NCBI GenBank assembly: GCA_029978905.1
Contig: JAPOIM010000001.1
Coordinates: forward strand, 95,871-159,870
DNA: 64,000 bases
Direction of reading: 5' to 3'
Origin: Planctomycetota bacterium
GTDB taxonomy: Bacteria; Planctomycetota; Planctomycetia; Pirellulales; UBA1268
The notes beneath the pieces are model-generated. The model did not search any database. It had not been told where the DNA came from and worked only from the letters and a program-made list of their open reading frames with translations. The translations under genes were made by a program, and so were the position numbers. Shown here one piece after another: positions 32,968 to 53,179 of the stretch. Numbering within the stretch: position 1 is the stretch's first letter; every line of letters starts with the position of its first letter.

Positions 32968-32980
32968 AGGACACGCACCG

Positions 32981-36608: not shown

Positions 36609-36637
36609 CCGTCTACGCAGCAAAGGACGCCGTCCCA

Positions 36638-37894
36638 CTACAGGTCTTGGCTGCCGGTGCGGAAACGGGCTGCCTCGACGTTGAGTTCGCGGATGGCCCG
36701 GCGAAGGTCGTCGAGCGACCCGGCGAAAACCGCCATCGACGCGGAAGACGCTCCGGCTCCTTCGGTGAGGCCTTCGATCGTGTCGCGAATCTGCCTCGCT
36801 CCGAGCGACTGCGCTTGCATGCCTTCGTGCACATGTTCAAGCGCCTGCGTCACGGTCTGCACAGGTTCGATCACGCGGCCGAGTTGCTCGCTGACGTCGG
36901 CCACCTCTCCGATTCGCTGCCCAACCTCTCCGCGAAAACGATCCATCTCCATCGTGCCGCTCGACACCGCGGCCTGCATGTCGCGGACCATCCGCTCGAT
37001 GTCTTTCGTCGCCAATGCGGTCTGATCGGCGAGCCGCCTGATCTCCTGGGCCACGATCCGGAATCCGCGGCCACTCTCACCAGCCTTCTCCGCCTCAATC
37101 GTCGCATTCACCGAGAGCAGGTTGGTCTGGTCTGCCACCTTGGCAATCGCGGTCACCACCGACGTAATCCCCGCCGCGCGCTGACTGATGGTGGAGAGCT
37201 TTCGCGTGAATGCATTCATCGCGTCGTCAAGTTTTTGCATCGAGTCGGTCATCGATGCCAACCCGTCGCGGCCCGCATCAGCGACCACCGCAGCCTCACG
37301 AGCAACCTGCGTGACGCGGCTCGTGCTGTCGAGCAGCTGTTCACTCGTGGCAGAAATCTGATTCACCGCAGCCGACACTTCCGAGGCGCTTTCGCTAAAC
37401 CTCCGAACGCTTCGATCCTGACGCGTGAGGGCCTCGGCGGCATCTGCCTCGACGCTCGAAAGCCGCTCACCCGCAGCCTGAATGCGGCCAATCAGGCCAC
37501 TCAGGCCTCGGGTCATCGTGTCGAGTGCGCCAAGCAGCCGGTCGATTTCCAGCGTGCTTGACGGGACAACCGTCGCCGTCAGATCTCCGGCCGCAATCGA
37601 TTCCGCCACGTCCACAGCCTGCCGAACAGGGCTTGTGATGGAGCGGGCAAGCCAGAGCGAGGCAAGCACGCCCGGAAGACCAATCACTGCAGCCGACGCC
37701 ACGGCAGCCGCCGCCTGCCAGACCAGCACGTCTCGGCTCGCCTCGGTCGACACCGACACGAGCACGGCTCCGCCCGACCGGCCATCCGCCCTGCGAACCG
37801 GGGCGGCCACGCGGTAACTCAGCGCTGTGAAACGCCCCGCAGGACGTCCACTGTCCACTGCCGCCCGCAAGAGCATCGAGTCCTCATCCGCCAA
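36638..37894 (-). CDS. Methyl-accepting chemotaxis protein, C-terminal fragment: end of the sensor domain, TM2, HAMP and the MCP signalling domain
   Basis: The listed start is a TTG. The TM segment is AAAAVASAAVIGLPGVLASLWLA, followed by HAMP (PVRQAVDVAESIAAGDL). The signalling hairpin is ADQTNLLSVNATIEAEKAGESGRGFRIVAQEIRRLADQT. It overlaps the N-terminal fragment in another frame. Confidence 0.8.
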   Translation of the reverse strand: MADEDSMLLRAAVDSGRPAGRFTALSYRVAAPVRRADGRSGGAVLVSVSTEASRDVLVWQAAAAVASAAVIGLPGVLASLWLARSITSPVRQAVDVAESIAAGDLTATVVPSSTLEIDRLLGALDTMTRGLSGLIGRIQAAGERLSSVEADAAEALTRQDRSVRRFSESASEVSAAVNQISATSEQLLDSTSRVTQVAREAAVVADAGRDGLASMTDSMQKLDDAMNAFTRKLSTISQRAAGITSVVTAIAKVADQTNLLSVNATIEAEKAGESGRGFRIVAQEIRRLADQTALATKDIERMVRDMQAAVSSGTMEMDRFRGEVGQRIGEVADVSEQLGRVIEPVQTVTQALEHVHEGMQAQSLGARQIRDTIEGLTEGAGASSASMAVFAGSLDDLRRAIRELNVEAARFRTGSQDL

Positions 37895-38625
37895 AGGCGC
37901 ACCACGCGGGCCAGCGAGTGCTCCACCGTCCGCTCGCCGGCTGACCTAGCTCCGCTCACGCTGCCATCGAAGATCTGTACCTCTTCGACCTGGCCGCCCG
38001 CGAGTTCTGAAACGAGCCGAGTCAGCCCCAGGTTTTCTTCCAGCCGTTCCAGAAAGAACGCTTCTATCCCCACCTGCACAATCCGGGGCTTGTCGATACC
38101 TCCGACACCCACGTACTTAAAGACGCGATCGTCGACCTCGCGTTTTCTCGCTTCCTGCACCACCGCAGCCGCTTCGCCGTCGATGAGACGGTAGAAGACG
38201 TGCGCCTGGGGCTGGGCTTGCGGATCGTTGAGAAAACGAAAATCACCGATGTCGGCAGTCGTGAGGTAGGCCAAGCCTTCTCCATCCGTCGCCAAAATCT
38301 CTAAGCCAAAGCGTCCCGCAGTTTCGGAGAGGGCTTGCTCGATCCGCTCTGGAGACACGCCCGCCTCTTCGCCAAGCGCCACGAGGTGCGCCGCGAGCGT
38401 GGCTTCCACCTTCATCTGCTCGGCAATTTCTTCCTCGACAAGGCTCGGCACGTCTTCGGCGAACGCGGTGGCCCTTGCGAGAAGGTCGGCAATCTCGTCT
38501 CCCCCCACCCGCGCCTGCTCGAGGACAGCCTGGCGGCCGGCGATCGTCTGCAGCAACGTGGTGACCACCACGGCAGCGAGGACGAGAAGTGTTGTCGTGA
38601 GGGCGATCTTCGAACGGAGCGACAT
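37819..38625 (-). CDS. Methyl-accepting chemotaxis protein, N-terminal fragment (TM1 plus Cache-like periplasmic sensor). Probably the frameshifted 5' part of the gene at 36638..37894.
   Basis: The ATG at 38625 gives MSLRSKIALTTTLLVLAAVVVTTLLQ (TM1). The last 30 or so residues (ERTVEHSLARVVRLWRMRTRCSCGRQW...) look out of frame. Confidence 0.65.
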   Translation of the reverse strand: MSLRSKIALTTTLLVLAAVVVTTLLQTIAGRQAVLEQARVGGDEIADLLARATAFAEDVPSLVEEEIAEQMKVEATLAAHLVALGEEAGVSPERIEQALSETAGRFGLEILATDGEGLAYLTTADIGDFRFLNDPQAQPQAHVFYRLIDGEAAAVVQEARKREVDDRVFKYVGVGGIDKPRIVQVGIEAFFLERLEENLGLTRLVSELAGGQVEEVQIFDGSVSGARSAGERTVEHSLARVVRLWRMRTRCSCGRQWTVDVLRGVSQR

Positions 38626-38720
38626 GCGTGGGGCATCTCCGGCAGGAACAGGCTCGGCAAGCACCGAACTCGTGAAAACCTAGCCCGCGACAGGCCTCAC
38701 CGCCACTCTCTCTTCACCAA

Positions 38721-39017
38721 TCACCGCGGTTGGATCGTCGCCAAACGCACACTCGGTGCCGGCTCGAACCGCACGGGCGGCTGCTCTGCCCGGATCGTCA
38801 TGGGAGGTTCCAGGGATCCGCTCGCCACCGCGGGCCGTCTGACGGCACCAGCGACCAGGCAGCCAAAGATCGGCAGAAACACCCACAACGGCGCCACACA
38901 CCAGGGCAACCAAACCGTCGGCCCCTCGCGAGGCGGCGTCGAGTTCTGAGTCTCGATCCGCACACGAACATTGGGGCGGGACGGGTTCTCAGCGTCGAGG
39001 GTGGCGGAGGGTGCCAT
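38721..39017 (-). CDS. Possible small membrane protein (98 aa)
   Basis: ATG start. The third codon position is mostly G/C by my count. There is one clear hydrophobic segment, VWLPWCVAPLWVFLPIFGCLVAG. The competing plus-strand frame is Arg-rich nonsense. Confidence 0.35.
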   Translation of the reverse strand: MAPSATLDAENPSRPNVRVRIETQNSTPPREGPTVWLPWCVAPLWVFLPIFGCLVAGAVRRPAVASGSLEPPMTIRAEQPPVRFEPAPSVRLATIQPR

Positions 39018-39118
39018 GGCGTTTCTCTGGGGCGGACGTGGCAGGGAAGTACCGCGGGCCGCCCCCGCAGATCAAGCCCAAATGACGCGTCCGCACGCGC
39101 ATCGCCCGAGAAAAACAG

Positions 39119-39204
39119 TGGCCGAGGCGGGGCTCGAACCCGCACACCCATTACTGGATACGGGATTTTAAGTCCCGTGCGTCTGCCTATTTCGCCACTC
39201 GGCC
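39119..39204 (-). tRNA. tRNA-Leu (anticodon UAA), type II with a long variable arm. No CCA is encoded.
   Basis: The reverse strand reads GGCCGAG-TG-GCGAAATAGGCAGACGC-A-CGGGA-CTTAAAA-TCCCG-TATCCAGTAATGGGTGT-GCGGG-TTCGAGC-CCCGC-CTCGGCC-A. The 7-bp acceptor stem, 5-bp anticodon stem and 5-bp T stem all pair. Confidence 0.93.
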
Positions 39205-39473
39205 GGCGGGAAGACTGCGAAAGTTGTACGGTCGACACTTCCCCGATCGCAATCCCGCACGGGAACCGACTCGACTCCCCGAGGACGATCGCGGCTGCTA
39301 CAAAGCCTGAGACAAGTGCGGATTGGCCACCCCCGCACAAGCCCTTTTCCGGTGGAGCGTTCCAGAGAGCGCGAGCGCCTCCGCGAGCCCAAAGGATGCG
39401 CCGCGTGCAGTCTTCGACTTCCCAACCCTCGCCACCACCAGGCGTTGATGGCTTTCTCGGTTCGCGGGCGTCG

Positions 39474-39911
39474 ATGGGAACCGACCTGGTGTTCGTGGCC
39501 CTCTTCGCCGTGCTTCCCTTGCTCGCCTGGGGGGTGCAGCTCGCTCGTCGGAAGAACTACCGTTGGCACAAGGCGGCCCAACTGAGCATCGCCGCGGCAC
39601 TCCTCCTGGCAATCCTCGTGTTCGAAATCGACATGCGGCTTGTCAGTGGCTGGAAGCCGCGAGCCCTTAGCAGCCCGTGGTGGCCAAACGGAGTGTGGAC
39701 CGCCTTGAGCATCCACCTCTTCTTTTCGATCTCCACCGTCGTGCTCTGGATCTGGGTGGTCTGGGAAGCCCTGCGGCGTTTCCCGTCACCACCAGCTCCG
39801 GCCGACCACAGCCGTCGCCATCGTCTGATGGGGCGTTTGGCCGCAGCGGACCTGTTCCTCACCTCTGTGACCGGGTGGATCTTCTACTGGTTTGCATTCG
39901 TCGCCAGTTGA
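39474..39911 (+). CDS. DUF420-family membrane protein
   Basis: The ATG at 39474 gives MGTDLVFVALFAVLPLLAWGVQLARRKNYRWHK. There are four TM segments. The listed 5' extension from 38730 crosses the tRNA and is Arg-rich. Confidence 0.7.
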   Translation: MGTDLVFVALFAVLPLLAWGVQLARRKNYRWHKAAQLSIAAALLLAILVFEIDMRLVSGWKPRALSSPWWPNGVWTALSIHLFFSISTVVLWIWVVWEALRRFPSPPAPADHSRRHRLMGRLAAADLFLTSVTGWIFYWFAFVAS

Positions 39912-39914
39912 CGC

Positions 39915-40922
39915 TCACGCTGACTCGCTCGGCCGAGGCATCCATCGACACAGGGCAAGCCCACCGAAGTAGAGAACGCAGAGCGGCAACGCCAAGAACA
40001 GCATGCTGTAGGGATCCGCGGGGGTGAGGATCGCGGCCACGATGAAGATCGCCACCACCGCCGTTCGCCACTGCGCGGCATAGGCCTCAGTCTCCACGAT
40101 GCCAATCCGCTCAAGGAAGAGCATCACCAGCGGCAGTTGGAATCCGATGCCAAAGCCGATCGGCAGCAGGAGCACAAAGCTCAGCCATTCGGTGATTCGG
40201 GGATCGGGATCCAGCCCAAGCCACTGATTGAAGGCGAGGAGATAGGCCAGCACAAAATCGAACACGAAAAAGAACGCCAGCGCCACGCCAGCCAGGAAGA
40301 GCCCCGTACTCACTGGCAGAAACACATGGACGTAGCGTTTCTCGTGGGGATAGAGGCCTGCCGCGACGAAGCTCCAGAGCTGGTAAAAAATCCACGGACT
40401 CGACAGCACCACGCCCACCACGAGCGCCGCTTTGACATAGATGCTGAAGGCCTCTTGGGCACTCAGCGTGGTGATATTCACTCGCGCGTCACGCGCAAGT
40501 GGCTGCCACAGCACCACGGGCACGAGTTCACCAAGGGGAAACTTTCCGTCGGCACTCGCGACCTCGCCTGCCGATCGGCCCAGGCGATCCACATGGATCT
40601 CTCGCACCTCAAACGAGAGGCCGTGCTGGGTCACCGCGTCGGTCATCTCTTCGACGCTATAGGGGATGCCCGCCGAGTCGGGTGTCCGCGGCTGCCACTC
40701 CTCCACGACCTTCGTCGACTGGTCGATGTAGTAATCACCGAGCGCCCTCCGCAGCGGCTGCTCGATGAGGTGCACAACGTCACGGCCAATCAGAAATCCG
40801 ATCACCACTCCCACAAGCAAGCCGAGCGACGCCTTGATCAGGCAGGTCCGGAGCTCCTCCAGGTGCTCCCCGAACGTCATCGTGGAGCTTTGAAACAGGT
40901 CTTCGTCGTGGGTGCGCGGCAT
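39915..40922 (-). CDS. tatC: Twin-arginine translocase subunit TatC (long form)
   Basis: MTFGEHLEELRTCLIKASLGLLV, SSPWIFYQLWSFVAAGLYPHEKR and ILTPADPYSM. The protein is 335 aa because the first extracytoplasmic loop is enlarged. Confidence 0.9.
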   Translation of the reverse strand: MPRTHDEDLFQSSTMTFGEHLEELRTCLIKASLGLLVGVVIGFLIGRDVVHLIEQPLRRALGDYYIDQSTKVVEEWQPRTPDSAGIPYSVEEMTDAVTQHGLSFEVREIHVDRLGRSAGEVASADGKFPLGELVPVVLWQPLARDARVNITTLSAQEAFSIYVKAALVVGVVLSSPWIFYQLWSFVAAGLYPHEKRYVHVFLPVSTGLFLAGVALAFFFVFDFVLAYLLAFNQWLGLDPDPRITEWLSFVLLLPIGFGIGFQLPLVMLFLERIGIVETEAYAAQWRTAVVAIFIVAAILTPADPYSMLFLALPLCVLYFGGLALCRWMPRPSESA

Positions 40923-41036
40923 GGGTCGTCCAGAAACGGGTTGTGATCAGCCGGCGGGCTGCTCCCACGATTTATACTCGATGTTACGTGGCGTTCAGAC
41001 AACGCAGCCCTCTCCCCGGAAAGCAGGCCAGTCACC

Positions 41037-42998
41037 GTGCCAGAGTCTGTCTCGTTTTTTGGCTGGCTGCGAACGCAGGGCTGCGGGCCAGGACGCGTAC
41101 TGCTGAAAGTCCTCGGCCTGCTGGTGATGGCGCTCACGACCCTCTCGCCACCGTGCATCGGGGCCCAGCGGGAGGGGGCGTCGTTCCCCGCAGCGTCGCG
41201 GCTCCCGCCCGCCCTTCGCACCCCGCTTCGCGAAGCGTGTGCCGCCGCCCGACACGCAACGAGCCTCGAGGAGATCCACGCCGCCCGCGTGAGCATCGAT
41301 CGCCTTGAGGAACGGCAGCAGCAGGCCACCCAGGCGTGGCTCGTGTCGCGTGAAGACGTGACCACGCCAAAAGAATCCCCCTCCCTCGACGTTGTCCCTG
41401 CAGACGTCCTGGTGCCACTCGATCGACTCCTGGAAACGCTTCGTCGCCACCTCACCGGCGCGGGTCACGCGGGGCTCCAACCCGGTGGACTCACCCCCTC
41501 CCAGGCCGCCAACCCAGCGTTTGCCCAAGCCATCAGCGACCGCGACATTGGGCACCTTCAGCGTCTCGCCCGTCAGACCTCGAGCGGCCAAACCCTGTTT
41601 GAGATCTGGCTCATGACGGGAGACCTGATGCTTGAGCGAGGGTGGACGTGTGCCGCGGCCGAGGCTTGGGGGCATGCGCGCACGCTCGCCGAGCAGATGC
41701 GAGACGACGACGCACTGACCAATGTTCGCCACCGAGAAGGCCTCCGCACAGCCCAGTCGCCCGCCGCAGACGCCACCTCCGGTGAACGTCGGCCCAGCAG
41801 ATCCTGGCAGCGACGCTGGCAGGCAGACCTCGCCGCGGATGCGCATACCCCGAGCAGCGGCGGCCATCCGCTCGCGCCAATCACGGTGGCGACCAGTCAC
41901 GATGCCTCGGGGGGACTCATCTGCTGGCATGCGGATGACAGTGTTCATGCCCGATCACTGACCGACGGCCGAGCACCATGGCAAGCCCACCAAGACGGCC
42001 CCGCCGGCAACCGTCTCTTTCCACCGCGCGGTGCCGCCCCTAGTGGCGTTCCCGCCTGGCCTCCGCAGGTGTTCCACGGCAGGTTGTTCACCGTTCTCAG
42101 CGAGGCACCTGCAACGCGAGCCATCGCAGCGGAAGGTCGTCGATCGGCATCGCGGCTGATCTGCCTCGACGTCACGGCTGCAGCCGAAGGCCGCCTGCTC
42201 TGGGAACGGCCGCTCGCCTCAACCAGAGGTGAAACGCTCGTGGGCCCACCAGCCTTCGGCCAAGGCTCTCGCAGCGAAGACCTCGCGGTTGTCTGCGTGC
42301 GAGGGGAGACGATTGACCTCATCGCGATTCGACTCCACGACGGCGAGGTTCTGTGGCGACGCCCTCTCGGCCTCCAGATCAACCAGGCTAGGGCAGGGGA
42401 CGCGCTTCCACAGCCAACCTTCGCGGAAGACCTTGTGATCGTTGCCGACGACGATGGAAGCGTGTGGGCGATCAACCTCGCTGGCGAGATCATGTGGGTT
42501 CGGCCCATGCACGCGTCACCGCACCCGGTCATCACGAGCAGCGGCACCGTGGCGGTGTGCGACGCGAGCGCCCATGACCTGATCGGTCTCGACCTCCGCA
42601 CAGGCTCGCGCCGCTGGCAGTTCCGCTCTTCAAGCCCCATTGGCTGGGTCGGCTGCGAGCAGGACCTCGTCGTAGCCCAGTCTTCCGACGGCTTCGTCAC
42701 GCTCCACGCGGTCGATGGATCGGTGGTCGCGAGCCGCTCGATTGCCGAGGCTTCCTCCTTCGGAAAAGCCCTCCTCGTCGCGGGCGACCTGTTCTGGCCC
42801 ATGCGATCCCCCCCGTCCAACGCGGTCCCCACCGTGCGCATCCTCAACCCGAGTACACTCGAGGCGTGCGAGACGCCGATCTTGCTGGAAGATCACGGAT
42901 CGCGCGGGATCGCCCTCGCCGCCAACGACGGGTGGTTGGTTGCCTACGATGGCACGTCGCTTCAGGTCTTTTCCTCTCCGCCACCATCGAATCCATGA
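41037..42998 (+). CDS. PQQ-like (BamB-type) beta-propeller repeat protein with an N-terminal helical region
   Basis: GTG start and hydrophobic N-terminus LLKVLGLLVMALTTL. Repeated propeller blades: DGEVLWRRPL, DDDGSVWAINLAGEIMWVRP, LIGLDLRTGSRRWQF, VTLHAVDGSVV. Confidence 0.7.
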   Translation: MPESVSFFGWLRTQGCGPGRVLLKVLGLLVMALTTLSPPCIGAQREGASFPAASRLPPALRTPLREACAAARHATSLEEIHAARVSIDRLEERQQQATQAWLVSREDVTTPKESPSLDVVPADVLVPLDRLLETLRRHLTGAGHAGLQPGGLTPSQAANPAFAQAISDRDIGHLQRLARQTSSGQTLFEIWLMTGDLMLERGWTCAAAEAWGHARTLAEQMRDDDALTNVRHREGLRTAQSPAADATSGERRPSRSWQRRWQADLAADAHTPSSGGHPLAPITVATSHDASGGLICWHADDSVHARSLTDGRAPWQAHQDGPAGNRLFPPRGAAPSGVPAWPPQVFHGRLFTVLSEAPATRAIAAEGRRSASRLICLDVTAAAEGRLLWERPLASTRGETLVGPPAFGQGSRSEDLAVVCVRGETIDLIAIRLHDGEVLWRRPLGLQINQARAGDALPQPTFAEDLVIVADDDGSVWAINLAGEIMWVRPMHASPHPVITSSGTVAVCDASAHDLIGLDLRTGSRRWQFRSSSPIGWVGCEQDLVVAQSSDGFVTLHAVDGSVVASRSIAEASSFGKALLVAGDLFWPMRSPPSNAVPTVRILNPSTLEACETPILLEDHGSRGIALAANDGWLVAYDGTSLQVFSSPPPSNP

Positions 42999-43990
42999 CT
43001 GCCCCCACGAAGCGACCGCCCCCCGTCACTCATGAAGTCGCCGAGCTTGCCAACACCGTAATGGAGGCTGTGGCCTCGCGAGTCGTCGGCCAGCAGGAAA
43101 CGCTGCGACAGCTCATGGTGAGTGTCCTCTGCGGCGGCCACTGCTTGCTGGAGGGCGTGCCTGGGGTTGCCAAAACGCTGATGGTCAAGTCGCTGGCCGA
43201 GGCGCTCGGCCTCCGCTACGGACGGATCCAGTTCACTCCCGACCTGATGCCGTCGGACATCACCGGCACCGATGTGCTCGAACAGAGCCCTGATGGCTCA
43301 CGGCACACCCGCTTCCTCCCCGGACCGCTGTTCACCGAGGTCCTTCTCGCGGACGAGATCAACCGCTCTCCTCCCAAGACACAGTCGGCCCTGCTCGAGG
43401 GAATGCAGGAGGGGCACGTGACGGTCGGCGGGCACAGACACCTGCTCCCCACGCCGTTCCTCACACTGGCCACCCAAAATCCTATCGAGCAGGAGGGCAC
43501 GTATCCTTTGCCCGAAGGACAGCGTGATCGCTTCTTGCTGATGATCCGTGTTGGTTATCCCTCCCGTGAGGATGAACTTGCCGTGGTCCAGCAGACGACC
43601 GCGGTGGTGTTGCCCGTAGTCGCTGCAGTGACCACCCGCGAGACGCTCCTGTCCGCCATGGAGATCGTGCGAGCCGTGCCGATCGCCGAACATGTGCTCG
43701 CAGCCTGCGTCGACCTCACCCGTCGCAGCCGTCCGCAGGACCCTCAAGCCCCCGCATGGCTCTCACCTCTGGTGCGATTCGGTGGAGGACCGCGTGCCAG
43801 CCAGGCTTTGGCGATGGCTGCGAAAGCGACGGCGGCCATGGAAGGCCGACCAGCCGTGGAGCGAGCCGACGTTCGCCGCTGTGCAGCAGCAGTCCTGCGG
43901 CACCGGCTTGTGCTGAGTTTTGCAGCGGAGTCGGAGGGGATAACCGCCGACACCGTCGTTGAGCGACTCGTCGAGGAAACCTTCACCTAA
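42995..43990 (+). CDS. MoxR-family AAA+ ATPase
   Basis: The ATG at 42995 overlaps the upstream stop (ATGA). Motifs are VVGQQETLRQLMVSVLCGGHCLLEGVPGVAKT, RIQFTPDLMPSDITG, LLADEINRSPPKTQSALLEGMQE and ATQNPIEQEGTYPLPEGQRDRF. Confidence 0.92.
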   Translation: MTAPTKRPPPVTHEVAELANTVMEAVASRVVGQQETLRQLMVSVLCGGHCLLEGVPGVAKTLMVKSLAEALGLRYGRIQFTPDLMPSDITGTDVLEQSPDGSRHTRFLPGPLFTEVLLADEINRSPPKTQSALLEGMQEGHVTVGGHRHLLPTPFLTLATQNPIEQEGTYPLPEGQRDRFLLMIRVGYPSREDELAVVQQTTAVVLPVVAAVTTRETLLSAMEIVRAVPIAEHVLAACVDLTRRSRPQDPQAPAWLSPLVRFGGGPRASQALAMAAKATAAMEGRPAVERADVRRCAAAVLRHRLVLSFAAESEGITADTVVERLVEETFT

Positions 43991-44070
43991 CGTGGACGGG
44001 ACGCACGCCGCTTCGTCCCGCCATCACGCGCCCGTCCTGCCAGCCCGTCCTTGCCTGAAGGTGTGCCTCG

Positions 44071-46569
44071 GTGACCATGCCCGCCGTCTTTGCCGGCCTG
44101 ATGTTCTCGAGTCCGTGGATGCTCGGCTTCCTCGTGGCGGTCGCGTTGCCATGGTGGCTCGCCTGGCGAGCCCAGCCGGCACCAAAGCGAGTGGATCTGG
44201 CGACCACCTCCCTCGTGATTGCGGCGGCTCGCCGTCACCTCCGCTGGCGACAGCCCCCCCACTGGCTGCTGCCCCTGCTGCGTTCGCTCATCCTCGTGGC
44301 GATCGCGGTCGCCGCCGCCGAGCCTGCCTGGAAGGGAGCGAAGACGGGAACCTTGGGGCCAACGCGGCGTGTCCTGCTTCTCGACGACGCAGCCGCCGAC
44401 ACGACCACCGCGCCGATGATGGCCGCCCTTGAGGCCCTCGCCGACCTCCAGGGCGACGGAAGGATGGTGCTGGAGCAGATGTCCGCCGCGAGCACGAGCC
44501 CCCAACAGATTCCACCCGACACAGCGCTCGTGATCCTTGCCGATGGGGCCGTGCCACCACGGCCGCTGCGGGCGTGGCTCGGCGCCTGGGTCGAAAGCGG
44601 AGGCGGCGTGCTCGCGCTCATTGGCCCGGAGAGCACCACCCCAGACGGTGCCTTGGGGCCGTGGTTGGCGGACCTTGCGGGTGTGCGCATCGCGGGTCAA
44701 CACAACGGTCCCGCCGAAGGCCTCCGGCGTCCGTTTGCCGCGGCGGGGTCGGCGGCGGTTCGCGGACCGACCGTACAGCGGTATGCGGAACTCGCGATCC
44801 TCCCGCAATCCCCTTCGAGTACGATCGCGCTCGCGGCTCCACAGACCTTCCTGGAAACGACGTCGTCGGAGCCGCTGCTCATCGCGCGAGGAGTGGGGCA
44901 GGGGCGGGTGGCGATCTCCGCGCTTCCTTGGACCCTGCCTCCCTCCGCGACGCTGTCAGACACGGCACGCTGGAGTGACCTTCCGGCATGGCCAGTATTC
45001 ACCTCGGTGGTGGAAGACCTCCTCGACACGTTCACGCCGACCTGGGATCACCTCACACCTCCGCCAACCGCCGCAGGTTCGCTCTGGCTCGCGACGCACG
45101 ACCTTGCCAGGCTCTGCCTTGTGGTGGCGCTCGCCCTGTTTGCTCTCGAAATGATCGTACGTCGCTCGTGGAAGGGGCCGCGCAAGCGTCCTGGTTGGGA
45201 TTGGCGATGCGGAGCCATTCAGGTGACGAGCCTTGCGCTGCTGACGCTGATGCTCCTTGGCGTGCGACATGCCTCGCCGACGCCACCGCCACGCGAGGCA
45301 CCTCAGCCATCGGAGACACTCGCGCTCACCGATCTGGTGATGCCACCAGTTGCCTGGATCGGTGATGCGATCGACGTTGAGGTCGTCGCCACACGCCGCC
45401 CATCGCCGGCACGCGGCTCAGGAGCAACCGGCCCAGTGGTCGAACTCGTCGACCAACTCGGTCGCGTAGTCAGCCAAGCCGCGCTCACCCCCACACCTGA
45501 AGCCTCTGACACGCACCGCGAAACCTGGCGAGCCCTGCTCTCATGGTCACCCGAGGACGCGGGCCTGCAACGCTTCACCGCGCGCCTGGCTGCATCCGAC
45601 GGCCCCACGGCAACCACCACCCTTGGCCACACGCTTCCCGCGATCTGTGGCGTTGCCGCAGCACCGCGGAGGGTGCTGATCATCGACGGCACCGCTCGCT
45701 GGGAGACACGGCATCTCGCTCGCATCCTTCGCAGCACCCCGGGAGTCGAGGTGCAGATGACGCTGCTGGAAGCAGATAGCGCCGTGCCCATCCCCACGAC
45801 CGCGGATGGAGTGGCCGCGTTTTCGACCGTGGTGCTGGGGGCCTTTGATCCTCGTGACCTTCCAAGCGGAGCGGCAGAGGCGATTGCCGCCGCAGTCCTC
45901 AAGCGGAGCGTCGGCGTTGTCTGGACACTCGACGGACGCTGCGACCTCGCGGCCCTCGCGGGCTCTCCCTTGGGAGCGATCCTTCCCTGCGTGCCGATCG
46001 ATCCAACGCTCTCGCGGCCAGTCGACCAACGCCTGCGGGTGCTCCCCACCCCAGCAACCGCCGGATTTCCCTGGATGGCCCCGCTCCTCCGCGCGGCCGA
46101 CCGGGCAGACAGCGAGGCGTCATTTCCTGCGCTCGCCCGCGCTCGCCACAGCACCGCGGTCGCTCCACTCCTGTTTGCTGCATCGCCCGCCTCGGAGAAT
46201 GCTTCCGACGCGAGTCCTGCGCTGCTCATCGACCACACGCCCACAGGGCGGGTGTTGGCCACGCTGGGGGTGACCTGGCGTTGGCGGGCAGGAGGAAGCA
46301 GCGATGACGTGGATGCCTTTTGGCGTTCGGCGGTGCGGTTCGTCGCCGAACCACATCTCACCCAGCAACTCGGCGAGCCTCTGAAAAGTGCGCTGCGCGA
46401 CGCGGAACGGCAGCGGCATGGCCTGCAAACTGCCGTCGGCCCAGCTCCCGACCACGCCGTATCCTTCAACGTGCCACGCAGCTCAGAGCCAGTCTGGAAT
46501 CATCCCTTGCTGATTGCGATCGTGATCCTTTGCCTCGCGACCAGTTGGAGGCTCTGCCGCAGTGAGTGA
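44071..46569 (+). CDS. BatA_N (aerotolerance-regulator N-terminal) domain membrane protein, 832 aa
   Basis: N-terminus FSSPWMLGFLVAVALPWWLAWRAQ, then a second TM segment WLLPLLRSLILVAIAVAAA. A large extracytoplasmic region follows, ending in the C-terminal TM segment LLIAIVILCLATSW. An alternative ATG is at 44077. Confidence 0.7.
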   Translation: MTMPAVFAGLMFSSPWMLGFLVAVALPWWLAWRAQPAPKRVDLATTSLVIAAARRHLRWRQPPHWLLPLLRSLILVAIAVAAAEPAWKGAKTGTLGPTRRVLLLDDAAADTTTAPMMAALEALADLQGDGRMVLEQMSAASTSPQQIPPDTALVILADGAVPPRPLRAWLGAWVESGGGVLALIGPESTTPDGALGPWLADLAGVRIAGQHNGPAEGLRRPFAAAGSAAVRGPTVQRYAELAILPQSPSSTIALAAPQTFLETTSSEPLLIARGVGQGRVAISALPWTLPPSATLSDTARWSDLPAWPVFTSVVEDLLDTFTPTWDHLTPPPTAAGSLWLATHDLARLCLVVALALFALEMIVRRSWKGPRKRPGWDWRCGAIQVTSLALLTLMLLGVRHASPTPPPREAPQPSETLALTDLVMPPVAWIGDAIDVEVVATRRPSPARGSGATGPVVELVDQLGRVVSQAALTPTPEASDTHRETWRALLSWSPEDAGLQRFTARLAASDGPTATTTLGHTLPAICGVAAAPRRVLIIDGTARWETRHLARILRSTPGVEVQMTLLEADSAVPIPTTADGVAAFSTVVLGAFDPRDLPSGAAEAIAAAVLKRSVGVVWTLDGRCDLAALAGSPLGAILPCVPIDPTLSRPVDQRLRVLPTPATAGFPWMAPLLRAADRADSEASFPALARARHSTAVAPLLFAASPASENASDASPALLIDHTPTGRVLATLGVTWRWRAGGSSDDVDAFWRSAVRFVAEPHLTQQLGEPLKSALRDAERQRHGLQTAVGPAPDHAVSFNVPRSSEPVWNHPLLIAIVILCLATSWRLCRSE

Positions 46570-49345
46570 CCAGCCCGCACACCGCCTTGAGACACGCCCC
46601 GGCATGTTTCCCGCCACCCTTCCAGCAACGGCCCTCGACGCCCGCCTCCGCCGCGTCGGCATGGCGCTCGAGGCCGCTCGGACGGTCGCGATCGGGAGCA
46701 CGTTTGCCACGAACATGGGCCTCGCGATAGGGCTGATTGGTCTGCTGCACCACCGGCTGAGCCCGCTGCCGTCGGGTGCGGGCGGGGCCGGGGCAATCCT
46801 CCTCTCGGCCGCGGCCGCGTGGGCTATGGCGCGGTGGCTGAAGCGCGCCACCCCATACCCAGGCGCATTGGCGACGAGCCTGCGACTGGAGCAGTCGACT
46901 CCGCGGCTTGGAGAACGCATCTCTCGCGCGGTGGGGCTGCCGGCGTCCCCACGTCGCGGTCTTCCCTCCATCGCGTCGCTGCAGGCTCGCCTGCAGGAGG
47001 CCGCGGTCCGCGACGCGACCGAAGCCCTCGCCACCATCCGCCTCCCTGCCTGGTGTGGTCGCCAAGTCGAGGTTCGCGCGGCCGCGGTGATGCTCACCAT
47101 GGCCTGCCTGGCATGGCTGGCGCTTGGTGGAGTGTGGACCGCGGGTTCCGAGGAGTGGCGAGCGGCGATCGCCGTGCAGTTCTGGGATCCGCCCAGCCCT
47201 GGGGTTGGTGCCCCGCGGCACAGGCATGAGGAGCAGACACCTCACCTCTCCACACCGGAGGCCACGCGCGCGGTCTACCTGGCGGTGGTTGATCTGCAGA
47301 GCAAATGGCACGCGATACCTGCTGCCGCCCCCGCCAGCCCAGCCGCGACCGCGGCGCTCGCGCGCGAGGCCGTGCGGGCAGAGGAAGCACTCACGCTTCA
47401 TACGCCCCCTGGCGAGCCTCCGCCGCTCGTGCTCGCGGCCTTGTCCAGAGGACTGACGAACGCCGCGTCGATGGCCGCCGACGGCGTGCCGAGCGACGAG
47501 GTGGCGGCGTTGCTTGAAGACCTGATCGCCATGGCGCGTGCCGCTGCAGGTCTCGCTGACGCAGCCGAGGTGATCGGCGAGGCCAGCCGCATGCTCTTCG
47601 CCGCTGCGGGCCGCTCAGCCGGTCTGGCCCATGACGAACTGAATGCGGCCGAACAGGCCTGGCGGGAGGACGTCCACCGCGCACTCGATGCCGTCGCCGC
47701 GGGCATCACGGCCGACGCCGACTACCTTGCACACCACGGCGTCGCCGCCGCGACGCAGGGCTCGATCTTCCTCACTGGCGATATCGCCGAAGCTGTGCAA
47801 GGCAACCGGCTGTTCCTTGCCGGCAAGACGCTCGCCGAGACCGCGGCCTCACTTACGGCCCTCGCTGACGCGCTGGCGATGCCGCCACTCACAGACCGCG
47901 CCGTGCCGAGTGTCGCCGCAACGGCCCGCCGCCGATTGGCTACTCTCCCCCAGCCTTCCAGCATCGACCTGCCCACAGAGCGCAGAGCCATCGCGCTGCC
48001 GAACGAGTCTCCTGGCCCCGCCGCATCCGAGACCGCCGTAGCGGCAGTCGACCCGGGCGATGTACCGGACGCTTCGCAGCCGCAGACCACCACGCAGGCA
48101 ACGTCGGCCGGCGGGGAACCGACTGGCCTCGCCGCCCAGAGTGGGAGCGCATCCCAAGCACGCGTCGAAGGCTCCGCGTCGCACGCCACGAGCGTCTGGA
48201 TTCCGCAGCCGACTCGTCCAGGCGAGACCGCGCCCCAGCCCGCCAACCGCACGCCTGCGGCAGCCCCAGGCTACTTCCGTCGACTGCTCAACGGCGCCAC
48301 TCCTGACCTCTCGCGGGAGTCGGCGGCCTTCCGCACAGCCGTCGCAAGCCTGGCCATCGCCGTCACGATGATGACCGAGGGTGATGCCGAGCCTGCCGAG
48401 AGCGTGCCCGACGCGCAGACCGCCTCCGCAGCAGTCGATCGAGGTGTCAGCTGGCTTGTTGCCGCCCAACAGCCAGACGGGTCATGGGGCTCCCAACGAT
48501 TTCGTGGCAGCGTGGCGGTGACCGCGCATGGCCTTCTTGCCCTTGCGTCGACAGGGAGCACGGGGTTTGCCGGCCCACATCGGGCGAGCGTGGAACGAGC
48601 GACCGATTTTCTCATCCGCCAGGCGGGCGATGACGGCCTGATCGCGGGCAACGAAGCGGCAGCCCATGGTCCGATGTATGGCCATGCCTACGCGGTGCAG
48701 GCCCTCGCCGAACTCTCCGGTGAATCCCCACGACCGGAACTCGCGGCGATCCTTCGCCGCGGCTGTCGGCTCATCGAGCAGACGCAAAACGAGGAGGGGG
48801 GATGGCGGTACCAACCCCGACAAGCCGACGCCGACATTTCCGTGACGGCTGCGATGGTGGTGGCCTTGGAGTCGGCAGCCGCGGCTGGCGTGTCGGTTTC
48901 CGAGACCACCCTCTCGCGGGCCACAGCCTATCTCCGAGGTCTGCAAAACACCGACGGAGGCTTTCGCTACCAGAAGGACGCCGGGCCGAGCGGGAGCGCC
49001 CGAACAGCTGCAGCCCTCGTGGCCCTCGCGGTCGCCGATGCTGCGCACGGAGAGACGCTCAGCACAGGCCGCGCGTGGCTGACGCGCCACCCGGTGTCGC
49101 GGGAGGCGGCCGATGGCTACACCGCCTACGGACTCCTCGCCAGTTCCACGGTGGCCTGGCAGATGGGGCCAGAACCTTGGGGGGCGTGGTATGCGTCGAC
49201 CGCGGGAGACCTGCTTGCCGCGCAGGCCCCGGATGGCTCTTGGGCCGATCCCTCGTGCGCAGAGTTCGGCACCGCCGCCGCTATTCTTTCGCTGACGACG
49301 GCAAATGGGCTGCTCCCAGGTTGGAAGCGAGGCACCACGCCATGA
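46562..49345 (+). CDS. Membrane protein with an Ala-rich central region and a C-terminal prenyltransferase/terpenoid-cyclase-like alpha/alpha-toroid repeat domain
   Basis: The GTG start overlaps the upstream stop. There are two N-terminal TM segments. C-terminal repeats are QQPDGSWGSQ, QNEEGGWRYQ, LQNTDGGFRYQ and QAPDGSWAD. Confidence 0.7.
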   Translation: MSDQPAHRLETRPGMFPATLPATALDARLRRVGMALEAARTVAIGSTFATNMGLAIGLIGLLHHRLSPLPSGAGGAGAILLSAAAAWAMARWLKRATPYPGALATSLRLEQSTPRLGERISRAVGLPASPRRGLPSIASLQARLQEAAVRDATEALATIRLPAWCGRQVEVRAAAVMLTMACLAWLALGGVWTAGSEEWRAAIAVQFWDPPSPGVGAPRHRHEEQTPHLSTPEATRAVYLAVVDLQSKWHAIPAAAPASPAATAALAREAVRAEEALTLHTPPGEPPPLVLAALSRGLTNAASMAADGVPSDEVAALLEDLIAMARAAAGLADAAEVIGEASRMLFAAAGRSAGLAHDELNAAEQAWREDVHRALDAVAAGITADADYLAHHGVAAATQGSIFLTGDIAEAVQGNRLFLAGKTLAETAASLTALADALAMPPLTDRAVPSVAATARRRLATLPQPSSIDLPTERRAIALPNESPGPAASETAVAAVDPGDVPDASQPQTTTQATSAGGEPTGLAAQSGSASQARVEGSASHATSVWIPQPTRPGETAPQPANRTPAAAPGYFRRLLNGATPDLSRESAAFRTAVASLAIAVTMMTEGDAEPAESVPDAQTASAAVDRGVSWLVAAQQPDGSWGSQRFRGSVAVTAHGLLALASTGSTGFAGPHRASVERATDFLIRQAGDDGLIAGNEAAAHGPMYGHAYAVQALAELSGESPRPELAAILRRGCRLIEQTQNEEGGWRYQPRQADADISVTAAMVVALESAAAAGVSVSETTLSRATAYLRGLQNTDGGFRYQKDAGPSGSARTAAALVALAVADAAHGETLSTGRAWLTRHPVSREAADGYTAYGLLASSTVAWQMGPEPWGAWYASTAGDLLAAQAPDGSWADPSCAEFGTAAAILSLTTANGLLPGWKRGTTP

Positions 49346-50766
49346 CAGGAGGGCGTGAGCACACCACGGAAGCAGGCCGCCGCGTCGACGGCACGCGCCC
49401 GCCTGCCTCACTGCGAGTCTTCTCGACCTGCGTGCTCGCCACGCTCATGGCCACCGGCGCACTCTTCGCGTTGCGTCCATGGCAAGCGCTCGGCCAAATG
49501 CCCGAGGCGTTGCCGCCGCGCACCGGCCCCCTCCACACGTTCTCAGAAACCTTTGCGCAGGCGCAGTTGATGACGCTTACGACAAGCGGCAGCCGCTGGC
49601 AAACGCCCGATGGCGAGGTGACCCTCGCGACGGACGACCTGCTGCGTTGGCGATCCTGCCCCGCCGCGGTGATCGGCCCCGCGCTGCTGCTTCGCGACGG
49701 CGGGTGCCTCGCCGGCACTCTCCTCGCCTGGACAGACACGGGCGTGCTCCTTGCAAGCCCACTCCTTGGTCGGCTGCGTCTGCCCCGCGACGCGGTGGCT
49801 GCGTGGGGCACCATCCCGCTTCCTTCCGGGGGCCTCGGCACGGATGCCCCGTGCGTCGTGCATCTGACCAATGGCGACTCCCTGATGGCTGCCGCGTTCG
49901 CCATGCATGAGGCTGCCGACTCCGCCACCGTCACCCTCGCGGCCATCGCCGGGGAGAATCAGCCACCGACAACGTTCCGCATCCCGCGGGATCGCATCCA
50001 CACCATCGTCGTCAACGCTCCACGCACGTCGCCCCAGGCTCACGGCGACGACTGCCCGCTGGCCATCGTGGGACTGGCCGATGGCACACGTCTGCATGTG
50101 GCAGCGATGGAGCCTGCCGAGAATGGCCTCGTGGTGATCACCCCCGTTGTGAGCGGCGGAGGCAGGCTTCCTCCGCTGTCCCTGCCTGCAGATGCGATCA
50201 CCGGACTGCTCGCGGTTGGCCCCCATGCGTGGCCGCTCGCCTGGCTGCCCGTCGCCGGCTACGAGCAAACGCCTCAGTTGGGCCCTGCGTGGCCGCTCGC
50301 CGTCGGCAGCACGCTCACCGGGGCCCCGATCGCTGCCCGCGGCCTGCGGGCGTTCACCGGTTTGGGCGTGCATGCCGCCAGCCGGCTCACGTACCAGCTG
50401 CCGGACCAACAGTCATCCGACGCCGAGCAGCGTCTCATCGGCCACGTGGCTCTCGACGATGCCGTAGGGCAGGGAGGAAGCGTGGTGATCCGTGTGTGGG
50501 TGGGTGAAACCCGAGACACGCTTCGCCTGCGATGGGAAAGCGCGATCATCAGAGGAGGCGACGCTCCCCTGATGATCGATGTGGACGTCTCAGGATGTCA
50601 CTGGCTTGAGCTGGAGGTCGACCCCACAGGTGACGGTGACGCGCAGGATCGCACGCTCTGGCTCGAGCCACGGCTTGTTAAGCGCCAAACTTCCCAAACC
50701 GCAAGGCGTGGGCCATCGCCAGCAGCATCAGATGCTTCGCTGGGAACATCCCCAGGCCGCCGCTGA
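49342..50766 (+). CDS. Secreted or membrane-anchored protein with a C-terminal NPCBM-like carbohydrate-binding-type domain
   Basis: The ATG at 49342 overlaps the upstream stop (ATGA). Anchor FSTCVLATLMATGALFAL. The C-terminus reads GLGVHAASRLTYQL...GHVALDDAVGQGGSVVIRVWVGE...DVSGCHWLELEVDPTGDGDAQDRTLWLEPRL. Confidence 0.65.
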   Translation: MTGGREHTTEAGRRVDGTRPPASLRVFSTCVLATLMATGALFALRPWQALGQMPEALPPRTGPLHTFSETFAQAQLMTLTTSGSRWQTPDGEVTLATDDLLRWRSCPAAVIGPALLLRDGGCLAGTLLAWTDTGVLLASPLLGRLRLPRDAVAAWGTIPLPSGGLGTDAPCVVHLTNGDSLMAAAFAMHEAADSATVTLAAIAGENQPPTTFRIPRDRIHTIVVNAPRTSPQAHGDDCPLAIVGLADGTRLHVAAMEPAENGLVVITPVVSGGGRLPPLSLPADAITGLLAVGPHAWPLAWLPVAGYEQTPQLGPAWPLAVGSTLTGAPIAARGLRAFTGLGVHAASRLTYQLPDQQSSDAEQRLIGHVALDDAVGQGGSVVIRVWVGETRDTLRLRWESAIIRGGDAPLMIDVDVSGCHWLELEVDPTGDGDAQDRTLWLEPRLVKRQTSQTARRGPSPAASDASLGTSPGRR

Positions 50767-52066: not shown

Positions 52067-53179
52067 ATGAGCGTTCTCCGACCCAAGCCCCCTGAAGACC
52101 CGATCTCGCTCACCCTCGGCCCGCTTGAGCACGCAGCGACAGCGCGTCTCGCCGAGTTTTCCGGCGTGCCGCGCGAGGGCGTCGCGCACTCGCTCCAGCC
52201 GGCCCGGCTTCTGGGCGACTACATGCAGACGAGGCCCTCCAGCCAGCTCTTTGAGACGCTCGCGCTTGCGAGGATGTTGGCGGATGCGGTCGACGCTGTC
52301 GCGGTGGTCTGTCGAAGCCCGCTTGGCCACGCCCTGCAGGGGATGTTTCAGACCTGCTGCCATCCCTTCCACAACCACCTCTCCCGCGGCGAACGCGGAG
52401 GAAGGCCTCGGCTCTTTATTGACGTCGCCCTCGGGCAGCACGACCCCGACCGCACGGCGGGCCTGATCGACCTGATCGCAGCCGCCCGTAGCGACGATCT
52501 CCTCGAGCGGTGGGGGATGCTCATGCTGGCAGAGGCAGATGGGCTCTCCGACACGCGAGCCCCCGCCGCGGGTGGGCTGGATCTGTCGCCCCATTGGCAT
52601 CAGGAGCTTGAAGTGGGGCGAGGCCCGCTGGCTGATGTGTTCAGCCCAGCAGTGCTGCTGACCGCGTCGGTGGCCGGCATCGACGTGGTGCGATTCCTCA
52701 GTGGCGGTGCGGCGATGCTGCGGCGGTTCCAAGAATCCCCGGCGGAAACCAACCCACCGATGCTGCTTGCCGCGGCCATGCGTGCCGCCGAACCTGCCCG
52801 CCTCGCACTCACCACCCAGCACGCCCCAGCCGCAGACGCCCTTTGCCACTGGTGGGCCGCCCACGAGGCCCCCTTGGCCAACCCTGGCTCGCCGCAGCAG
52901 TGGCCCTGCGAACTGCACTCCCTGCAGCCGCGTCGCGAGGGCGAGGGGTGGCACGCTCTCCACGCCCCTGCCACACCTGACGAAAGCGGCCTCGAGAGGC
53001 CCCCAGCGAACCGGCTGGCCATCATCCTTCCGCGACTCGATGAACACACCCTCGGTCAGCTGTTCGCCTTGAGGCTCATCGCCGCACGACTCGTGGCCAG
53101 CTCAATCGCCGGAGAAACCGTCTCCGCTCGAGGCGAGCCGGAAGCCGCCTGTGGGGCCACCGAGCACCGAGAGGCTTGA
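52067..53179 (+). CDS. Hypothetical protein, distantly similar to glucose-6-phosphate isomerase (SIS fold), with substrate-binding motifs degenerate
   Basis: VFSPAVLLTASVAGIDVVRFLSGGAAML...NPPMLLAA resembles the PGI block FSVLSAVGLLPAALAGIDI..LL.GA. LDEHTLGQLFAL resembles the PGI C-terminal block. SKSG and GGRYS equivalents are absent. Confidence 0.4.
   Translation: MSVLRPKPPEDPISLTLGPLEHAATARLAEFSGVPREGVAHSLQPARLLGDYMQTRPSSQLFETLALARMLADAVDAVAVVCRSPLGHALQGMFQTCCHPFHNHLSRGERGGRPRLFIDVALGQHDPDRTAGLIDLIAAARSDDLLERWGMLMLAEADGLSDTRAPAAGGLDLSPHWHQELEVGRGPLADVFSPAVLLTASVAGIDVVRFLSGGAAMLRRFQESPAETNPPMLLAAAMRAAEPARLALTTQHAPAADALCHWWAAHEAPLANPGSPQQWPCELHSLQPRREGEGWHALHAPATPDESGLERPPANRLAIILPRLDEHTLGQLFALRLIAARLVASSIAGETVSARGEPEAACGATEHREA

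Follow-up and report, generated by a model that had tools for sequence, protein, structure and literature searches.

The window analysed here, a 64-kb stretch of contig JAPOIM010000001.1 from a planctomycete genome (assembly GCA_029978905.1), carries a block of five + strand genes, termed G1 to G5, one of which encodes a MoxR-type AAA+ ATPase. G1 (41037–42998; module P) encodes a signal-anchored protein of 653 residues whose N-terminal part is helical and which has a PQQ_2/BamB-like beta-propeller at approximately residues 344–646. G2 (42995–43990) is the MoxR-type ATPase gene, with a product of 331 residues counted from its ATG. G3 (44071–46569) encodes an inner-membrane protein of 832 residues with five predicted transmembrane (TM) segments, in which two modules, A and B, are fused in frame. 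G4 (46562–49345; 927 residues) combines a module C, a helical and linker region and a module T, and G5 (49342–50766; module N) encodes a signal-anchored protein of 474 residues with an NPCBM/CBM51-like C-terminal domain. The block is flanked by a divergent tatC and a convergent apgM, and the 20 flanking open reading frames (ORFs) yielded only housekeeping domains in Pfam.

An original prediction, made from the sequence letters, had described five co-oriented genes with overlaps at three junctions, and both the ORF map and the sequence itself bear this out (ATGA at 42995–42998, GTGAGTGA at 46562–46569 and ATGA at 49342–49345). Its 80-bp gap between G2 and G3 is correct to the GTG at 44071; the spacing becomes 86 bp if G3 starts at the ATG at 44077. 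The start/stop overlaps suggest translational coupling. The same five ORFs, both fusions included, are found in an independent assembly (L001; ENA ERZ27257200) that is 99.4% identical. The divergent intergenic region between tatC and G1 (40923–41036) is, by position only, the presumed promoter region of the operon; a scan for consensus sigma-70 elements found no promoter in it, and no terminator was identified either.

MoxR AAA+ ATPases are generally held to act via a co-chaperone carrying the von Willebrand factor A (vWA) domain. The original prediction had placed neither DUF58 nor vWA in the operon and had asked whether such a domain lay embedded in its large proteins. Both points were followed up with Pfam, custom hidden Markov models (HMMs), profile-profile comparison and a fold search, and all four methods were negative. 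No Pfam match to DUF58 or VWA was obtained for G1 to G5 at E ≤ 0.1, nor for the 20 flanking ORFs at E ≤ 0.001, and an HMM built from 31 DUF58 sequences gave a best E value of 5 against the six-frame translation of the window. In HHalign comparisons, all five module profiles matched DUF58 with a probability below 1%, as against 93% for the positive control, cl1a versus DUF58 (cl1a and cl1b being custom HMMs of the two canonical vWA membrane proteins). The motif DxSxS occurs in none of G1 to G5; it is present in 29/31 DUF58, 16/19 cl1a and 19/19 cl1b sequences. Of the 31 canonical DUF58 proteins, 29 also have no predicted TM segment, and the two features together are consistent with a cytoplasmic MoxR adaptor. 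Proteins of the TPR/SH3 type (BatC to BatE) gave no Pfam matches in G1 to G5.

Pfam alone is unreliable for vWA in this family, as the fused AB protein of locus L089 (P0157) has a visible DxSxS...SDG block yet no VWA match at E < 0.01. Custom cluster HMMs, and HHalign with a positive control, were used for this reason. In the related loci L087–L089 and L096, the vWA block was picked up both by the family HMMs (with --max) and by HHalign; in G3, neither found it. DUF58 and vWA are genuinely missing from the operon, and their absence is conserved.

As a canonical comparison set, 80 generic MoxR loci (47–56% identity) were collected from GTDB genomes via a MoxR search and their ORFs were clustered. 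In the dominant layout of this Planctomycetes-Verrucomicrobia-Chlamydiae (PVC) operon, MoxR is followed by proteins of ~305, ~750 and ~810 residues and often by one of ~1200–1300 residues, with a protein of ~1500 residues and sometimes one of ~380 residues upstream. In the same order, Pfam assigns the representatives to DUF58, to BatA_N with VWA and a ThuA-like domain, to VWA with DUF7408, and to DUF4175, the upstream proteins being a PQQ_2/TPR propeller and an SQHop_cyclase-type toroid. When rescanned with custom HMMs, each of the 35 genome loci that have a cl1a-type protein showed DUF58 after MoxR and ahead of the first membrane protein; it takes the same position in three further canonical loci, L105–L107. 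The propeller lies directly upstream of MoxR in L105–L107 and upstream in L003, L007, L014, L030 and L040, with a toroid gene between the two in L030 and L040. BatC to BatE proteins of the TPR/SH3 type are likewise absent from this canonical form.

These comparisons change the standing of the locus. The original prediction had put it forward as the best candidate in the window for an uncharacterised system. Its operon and its domains stand, and all five domain assignments were reproduced with Pfam and NCBIfam, but the gene combination is not unprecedented: its propeller, MoxR, BatA_N protein, DUF4175-like module and toroid are components or regular neighbours of the PVC MoxR-DUF58-vWA operon. 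Because these parts are shared with the standard operon, the locus in the window is to be regarded as a reduced Bat-type operon and not as a separate system.

In G3, the N-terminus (44101–44325; residues 11–85) is a BatA_N double-TM anchor (PF07584, E = 2.3e-10, 41.2 bits against a cut-off of 25.9; TIGR02226, 31.2 bits against 23.05), with an Arg/Lys-rich loop that is predicted to be cytoplasmic: its TM segments are residues 6–24 and 65–83, and the 30 flanking loop residues (15 per side) include six K/R and no D/E. Domain A (44383–45042; residues 105–324) is a class-I glutamine amidotransferase (GATase)-like, ThuA-like alpha/beta domain with a predicted periplasmic location, homologous by HMM and HHalign to the post-vWA domain of canonical BatA-like proteins. 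It is followed by the fusion joint (45088–45264; residues 340–398), in which the C-terminal TM segment of module A is joined through a basic loop, RRSWKGPRKRPGWDWR, to the second TM segment of module B. Domain B (45301–46368; residues 411–766) is homologous to the part behind the vWA domain in the second canonical vWA protein, i.e. its DUF7408/GATase-like region.

An HMM of all canonical vWA proteins (cl1_all) matches G3 with E = 7e-48, cl1a with E = 2e-20 and cl1b with E = 8e-30, and the way in which these models align is informative. Positions 4–105 of cl1a align with G3 11–109 (BatA_N) and positions 357–564 with G3 110–320, the vWA block being skipped. Positions 235–597 of cl1b align with G3 411–766 (E = 6e-28), this time skipping the N-terminal TM segments as well as the vWA block. 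Weak custom-HMM matches extend over the C-terminal TM segments of G3. HHalign of the variant family against the canonical clusters returns the same two-block pattern with probabilities of 98–99.8%, the match of module B 79–432 to cl1b 247–608 reaching 99.8%. In alignment A1, a clean gap of ~190 residues is seen in G3 where the proteins of L087–L089 carry vWA with its DxSxS and SDG motifs. Taken together, these alignments identify G3 as an in-frame fusion of two vWA proteins from which both vWA domains have been cleanly deleted. As BatA_N, domains A and B and the TM segments, including a final one, account for all residues of G3, there is no room for a vWA domain of ~170 residues.

Comparison with the split orthologues of L082–L086 and L090 (genes of 383 and 504 residues), by alignment A1 and an analysis of TM segments and charge, indicates that the first TM segment of module B was deleted at the joint. 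Since exactly one segment was removed, both large domains of G3 stay on the same side of the membrane. Five hydrophobic segments are found in G3, and its loops 25–64 and 359–379 are strongly basic; these loops and the C-terminal tail are therefore predicted to be cytoplasmic and both large domains periplasmic. This topology agrees with that of the BatA-like protein BB0173, whose vWA domain was located experimentally in the periplasm (PMC5700661). The envelope placement in the original prediction is plausible for the four products other than MoxR, each of which has a signal anchor or TM segments. Fusion of the A and B type has occasionally taken place in canonical loci as well, giving proteins of 1437 residues in L011 (a metagenome-assembled genome (MAG) of Verrucomicrobiaceae) and ~1197 residues in L063, so that it is a recurrent event in this operon family.

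An AlphaFold2 model of G3 from a nine-sequence alignment had a mean predicted local distance difference test (pLDDT) score of 57, with 72–88 in domain A, and its fold was used for domain A only. Foldseek matched the model to 3rht (GATase1-like, from Planctomyces limnophilus), to the ThuA-like structures 4jqs and 4pxy and to the GH42 GATase-like domain; the 50 listed matches included neither a vWA nor an integrin-I domain. Sequence searches of the PDB with cl1a or the G3 family returned nothing significant.

G4 has a composite structure as well. The N-terminal part of module C (46562–47176; residues 1–205) is a DUF4175-like membrane module with a conserved juxtamembrane helix (LGERISRAV). The DUF4175-cluster HMM matches G4 alone with E = 4e-4 and its orthologues with E = 2e-7 to 1e-5, and HHalign aligns module C 1–205 with DUF4175 4–207 at a probability of 96.3%. 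The likeness is partial, being confined to the N-terminal ~200 residues, and Pfam PF13779 itself has no match on G4. An Ala-rich helical region and then a Pro/Thr/Ser-rich linker follow (47177–48316; residues 206–585), for which no Pfam match and no similarity to the DUF58 or vWA profiles were found; an AlphaFold2 model from the single sequence, unreliable at pLDDT 41, consists of helices and coil here, with no strands. Module T (48317–49345; residues 586–927) is a single alpha/alpha-toroid of the squalene-cyclase/prenyltransferase repeat type (SQHop_cyclase_C/Prenyltrans, E = 1.6e-13). It exists as a separate gene of ~340–360 residues in L087–L090, L091, L094, L096, L099, L102 and L104, and homologous toroid genes of ~380 residues are situated just upstream of canonical MoxR in L030, L040 and L072. 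G4 is thus a shortened DUF4175-like module fused to a toroid. A DUF4175 segment beside two TM helices has been reported in AdvA, an essential cell-division protein of Acinetobacter baumannii (PMC7481262), which offers a possible functional lead for this module.

With the two membrane proteins described, the chance that vWA or DUF58 is merely hidden by divergence inside G1, G3 or G4, the locus then being a standard Bat-type operon, can be judged. The insensitivity of Pfam illustrated by P0157 lends this explanation some support, yet the sensitive HMM and HHalign searches of G3 were negative, no stretch of ~170 residues is left unaccounted for, only GATase1/ThuA-like folds were recovered, the five proteins are devoid of DxSxS, and the uncharacterised part of G4 is all-helical or disordered in its low-confidence model. 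We consider it highly improbable.

The toroid invites a different explanation, namely a biosynthetic or degradative pathway in which the toroid of G4 acts enzymatically, as a class II terpene cyclase or in the handling of prenyl compounds, G5 targets a glycan substrate and MoxR serves as maturation factor of the enzyme, like NorQ and CbbQ. MoxR proteins are indeed known as enzyme-maturation factors (PMC9976466), and module T, which is 47–56% identical across the clade of related operons and the best-conserved module besides the ATPase, matches the repeats of squalene-hopene cyclase (SHC; 2sqc) with E = 1e-24. This match, however, covers SHC 454–568, the repeat part and not the DxDD active site. 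The module is a single toroid of ~340 residues, and as a full class II cyclase it was rejected, since it scores only 45 bits with TIGR01787 (cut-off 322.7), 39.8 with TIGR01507 (431) and 39.6 with TIGR03463 (851). The toroid sequence DADISVTA was also rejected as a DxDD-like catalytic site, because it recurs as the repeat-helix motif xxxTAxxxxAL. In addition, no linked isoprenoid or glycosyl-transfer genes occur among the flanking ORFs, and toroid genes accompany canonical Bat-type operons too. A terpenoid enzyme is accordingly improbable.

G1 has a PQQ_2 match in Pfam (E = 1.6e-16) and one hydrophobic segment (residues 19–37), and it matches the large PQQ propellers (cluster-6) found upstream of canonical MoxR (HMM E = 6e-14; HHalign probability 99.4%). 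Its identification as a BamB orthologue was rejected, with 46.2 bits for TIGR03300 against a cut-off of 285.2 and 27.4 bits for NF008351 against 423.

G5 is the one gene of the five that has no counterpart in the canonical loci examined. Its NPCBM domain (PF08305; residues 324–445, nt 50311–50676) scores E = 7e-20 and 71.9 bits against a cut-off of 23.9 and is present in 12/12 orthologues; ahead of it lie one hydrophobic segment, at the N-terminus, and three short repeats that are rich in beta structure. The NPCBM profile matches the CBM51 structures 2vmg/2vmh and 7js4, and G5 is predicted to bind glycans. The final 89 nt of the gene (50678–50766) overlap the 3' end of the convergent apgM, whose stop codon TAA lies on the minus strand at 50678–50680. 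The tail encoded there, KRQTSQTARRGPSPAASDASLGTSPGRR, also occurs in L082 and L097, and the other orthologues lack it. This conservation probably arises as a side effect of antisense reading through the conserved C-terminus of apgM.

G2 belongs to the AAA_3 family (196.6 bits; E = 1.8e-58 for AAA_3 with AAA_lid_2, the latter scoring 59.7 bits) and has no signal or TM segment. Its catalytic motifs are intact: Walker A (GVPGVAKT), Walker B (LLADEINR), sensor-1 (ATQNP) and the arginine finger (QRDRF). The gene also gave a weak match to Pfam bpMoxR (35.6 bits). Together with the adjoining beta-propeller gene, this match would speak for a ternary conflict (anti-invader) system of MoxR, vWA and beta-propeller as described by Kaur et al. 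(2020). AAA_3, however, outscores bpMoxR by 160 bits, the vWA partner is missing, the propeller is signal-anchored and neither an effector nor a hypervariable module is present. Moreover, the P-loop is the ordinary GVPGVAKT, not the GxxxTAKS of the FtsH/propeller systems (PMC7159879), PADLOC returned no match for any of the five proteins, and the neighbourhood is one of conserved housekeeping genes and not mobile. Of all the alternatives this one is the least likely, and we regard it as extremely improbable.

Whether the arrangement is particular to this genome was addressed through its relatives. A word-indexed protein search with G3 matched only G3 itself, and a profile of G3 and its relatives gave nine matches only. 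Relatives were therefore reached via MoxR (61–82% identity) and then through the locus context of the exact proteins, which led to loci L082–L090. These have the order tatC (−), propeller, MoxR, A/B module or modules, C, toroid and NPCBM, and contain no DUF58 or Pfam VWA. The majority have a convergent apgM (−) at the end of the block; in L086 the contig stops inside the operon, and in L088 a + strand gene follows NPCBM. A is split from B, as genes of ~383 and ~504–529 residues, in L082–L086 and L090, and G4 is split into a C gene of ~484–606 residues and a T gene of ~340–360 residues in L087–L090. From these differing gene boundaries it follows that the ancestral content was seven modules and that two fusions are present in the window. 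What the original prediction called 'three large envelope proteins' are accordingly gene fusions, G3 of A and B and G4 of C and the toroid, and relatives use six or seven genes for the same content. In L087–L089 the fused AB protein (1069–1194 residues) keeps in its B half a vWA block with DxSxS and SDG, whereas the window, L082–L086 and L090 show a clean gap at the position of vWA-B.

A phmmer search with G3 against 1.84 billion representatives returned 344 relatives, 55 of them at E ≤ 1e-10, including vWA-less A-type and B-type proteins and colinear fused forms of ~830–860 residues at 28–32% identity, in which Pfam recognises BatA_N only. A metagenome scan seeded with these distant fused forms yielded L091–L104, which have the same operon without DUF58 (L096 keeping vWA-B), and the canonical DUF58 loci L105–L107, which serve as an internal contrast. 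The synteny check proposed in the original prediction thus found the gene order conserved in L082–L090 and in L091–L104. In 21/21 loci of this variant clade that retain MoxR, the very next gene after MoxR is that of an A or AB protein and DUF58 does not intervene, and the DUF58-less operon, with tatC upstream and usually apgM downstream, occurs in ~16 distinct metagenomic lineages. As the order is kept in many relatives, the gene arrangement is far beyond chance.

In a neighbour-joining tree of MoxR, the variant clade is monophyletic with a bootstrap value of 100. Group I (support 89) consists of the window, L082, L084, L086, L090 and L097. Group II (support 99) holds lineages that retain vWA-B (support 79) and lineages without vWA (support 100). 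By this tree, the last vWA domain was lost at least twice. The closest relatives of the window locus, L086 and L097, have split genes, and its A-B fusion is therefore independent of that in Group II.

A reductive history of this kind could also be that of a decaying Bat-type remnant, in which deletions and fusions are steps towards pseudogenes: DUF58 and vWA have been lost and the DUF4175 module has shrunk from ~1200 to ~500–600 residues. Between the window and the 99.4%-identical strain there are 34 nonsynonymous and 32 synonymous codon differences, which points to only moderate constraint. This ratio is nevertheless well below the ~3:1 nonsynonymous excess anticipated under neutrality and is consistent with purifying selection. 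All ORFs are intact in ~16 distinct lineages even though AB identity falls as low as 23–30%, T modules and MoxR remain as similar as stated above, catalytic motifs are kept (Walker A, Walker B and the QxDRF motif in the window MoxR and 13/14 variant MoxRs, the Walker B of L086 being unmatched by the pattern), the fusion took exactly one TM segment so that topology was preserved, and the start/stop overlaps are maintained. Decay is in our view very improbable.

The MoxR sequences themselves bear on the main rival, which states that this is an ordinary MoxR-vWA system whose DUF58/vWA adaptor is supplied in trans, e.g. from another canonical MoxR operon. It is usual for a planctomycete genome to contain several paralogues of MoxR/DUF58, and the 64 kb examined are part of a contig of at least 167 kb. 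Work on NorQ/NorD further proposes that insertion of vWA into the pore is general to MoxR proteins (PMC9976466). On the other hand, DUF58 adjoins MoxR in every canonical locus considered above (35/35 with a cl1a-type protein, and L105–L107), and it is gone both from that position in all 21 variant loci and from the surrounding ±10 kb where genes were called. G2 is 50–56% identical to canonical PVC MoxRs, and the variant MoxRs form a clade of their own with a diagnostic Ala-to-Gly change in PEAQxDRF: residue 175 of G2, in PEGQ(R/L)DRF beside the arginine finger, is Gly in 14/14 MoxRs of the DUF58-less clade, and in canonical DUF58-linked MoxRs it is Ala in 30/31 (97%) and Gly in 0/31. Gly175 may be a co-evolutionary mark of adaptor loss. 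Finally, the periplasmic vWA domains were lost repeatedly after DUF58, which looks like a change of the whole system and not the relocation of one gene. An adaptor in trans is thus unlikely, though still by far the strongest of the competing explanations.

We consider it probable that the five genes form a working operon for a MoxR/Bat-like envelope system of the PVC type, in a reduced form without vWA. In the mechanism that we propose, G1 and G5 would face the periplasm along with the large domains of G3 and G4, as an inner-membrane-anchored scaffold which would contact envelope glycans through its NPCBM, toroid and propeller parts. The cytoplasmic MoxR hexamer would spend ATP on assembling or remodelling this scaffold complex. 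MoxR might dock directly on two loops of G3, that of BatA_N and that of the A-B joint, and on the juxtamembrane helix in the DUF4175-like part of G4; these sites are proposed because they are the only predicted cytoplasmic elements in the operon besides MoxR itself. [quoted passage not shown] As the most likely function, we infer a periplasmic complex that is anchored in the inner membrane, is assisted by MoxR and has glycans or the envelope as its binding partner. By analogy with the relatives in Rhizobium and Bacteroides, its physiological role would be expected to lie in envelope integrity or stress tolerance.

Several points weigh against this proposal. The docking of MoxR on cytoplasmic loops is a purely inferred step, co-transcription is deduced from the overlapping junctions and the conserved order, and the topology comes from hydrophobicity and charge counts and not from a dedicated predictor. 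The G3 model is moderately confident as a whole and poor in its B half, and the model of G4 is unreliable. Coverage extended to 64 kb of the genome, and a DUF58/vWA partner encoded elsewhere could serve this MoxR. Bat-type phenotypes, moreover, are inconsistent elsewhere; in Leptospira biflexa, no phenotype was found for bat mutants (PMC3557215).

More tentative is the claim that MoxR of this clade works without any vWA-fold adaptor whatsoever, engaging the cytoplasmic loops and juxtamembrane helices of its clients directly; this is a possibility that we would put short of likely. If it were true, the stepwise and repeated loss of DUF58, then of vWA-A and then (at least twice) of vWA-B would mean that the three vWA-fold modules are one interdependent unit that can be dispensed with as a block, and the clade would contradict the rule, proposed as general, by which the pore of MoxR is plugged by a vWA finger.

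To our knowledge, few bacterial gene clusters without an assigned function are as widespread as the MoxR/DUF58/vWA operons of the Bat type. Here, the same membrane machinery kept its ATPase and shed every vWA-fold module, with intermediates that have one MIDAS surviving in a sister group. It constitutes a natural test of whether this MoxR ATPase needs DUF58/vWA adaptors, and its loss series is comparative material on what the vWA and DUF58 modules contribute. The variant also suggests a minimal list of components, i.e. propeller, MoxR, two GATase-like periplasmic domains, DUF4175-like module and toroid, and indicates that the propeller and toroid genes, usually overlooked in annotation, belong to the conserved set. 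The practical impact will be limited until a member has been studied experimentally.

The surroundings of the operon are conserved as well. Upstream (window 32443–40922), the neighbourhood shared with L082–L090 contains nusB, ftsY, a BBP2 porin gene, a thioredoxin-like gene, an MCP gene (−), DUF420 and tatC (−), the latter being divergent from the propeller gene in every case. The divergent tatC/G1 layout is thus conserved across these loci. In view of the tatC neighbour, twin-arginine signals were considered in G1, G4 and G5; inspection by eye only found none that was convincing. The sole RNA gene found in the window with ARAGORN and Rfam, tRNA-Leu(TAA) at 39118–39204 (−), sits within a mechanically called ORF (38730–39911) whose DUF420 match spans residues 254–388 only, and the real DUF420 gene is therefore much shorter (145 residues in the L001 gene calls). 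Farther away, a DacZ-type diadenylate cyclase gene (DacZ_P sensor domain and DAC domain) is located at 25837–26874, directly upstream of polA. An ORF of 370 residues at 52067–53179 has no Pfam match; Pfam-less ORFs of 349–408 residues, matched to it by position alone, lie between apgM and a metallo-beta-lactamase-fold gene in L001 and L082–L085.

Among known systems, the ternary conflict systems (Kaur et al. 2020; PMC7159879) share with the window a MoxR gene beside a beta-propeller gene and the weak bpMoxR match, but the window operon is without their vWA protein and effectors and is set apart by its ordinary P-loop, signal-anchored propeller, conserved chromosomal context and negative PADLOC result. 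The pairs NorQ-NorD, CbbQ-CbbO and RavA-ViaA are alike in that a MoxR-class AAA+ hexamer is the motor by which a dedicated client complex is remodelled or matured. In those pairs the vWA domain plugs the ring and its MIDAS binds the client (PMC9976466), whereas no vWA-fold protein is encoded alongside the ATPase in the window.

The MoxR-like operon RL3499–RL3502 of Rhizobium leguminosarum is likewise led by MoxR and, by its description, encodes membrane proteins of the same general kind. Its mutants have defects in cell envelope and morphology, as cited in PMC5700661; in the account given there, the genetic evidence that points to an envelope role comes from this operon alone. According to the same account it contains DUF58, which the window operon does not. 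The BatI aerotolerance operon of Bacteroides fragilis and its spirochaete homologues (MoxR, DUF58 and BatA to BatE; bb0170–bb0176 in Borrelia) also place MoxR beside inner-membrane proteins with a BatA_N double-TM anchor and a largely periplasmic bulk (BB0173; PMC5700661), and are linked to the envelope or stress. They hold DUF58, two MIDAS-bearing vWA proteins and TPR/SH3 proteins BatC to BatE, none of which was found in the window by Pfam, and are without the propeller, toroid and NPCBM genes, all three of which the window has.

The closest likeness is to the canonical PVC MoxR operon, annotated in genomes and represented here by L003 (an Isosphaeraceae MAG), L014, L030, L040, L041 and L105–L107. 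Both have a MoxR of the AAA_3 subfamily, an upstream propeller, BatA_N, the two GATase-like post-vWA domains, a DUF4175-type module and a toroid, and they agree in gene order and strand. In the window, by contrast, DUF58 is gone, two vWA domains are deleted and the membrane proteins are fused with the loss of one TM segment. The DUF4175 module, ~1200 residues in the canonical operon and ~500–600 in the variant, is reduced to ~200 conserved residues plus a helical linker. It is fused to the toroid, whose place is now on the 3' side of MoxR instead of upstream of it, and an NPCBM protein has been added. The operon in the window is therefore a lineage-specific reduced variant of a known operon family and not an unrelated system.

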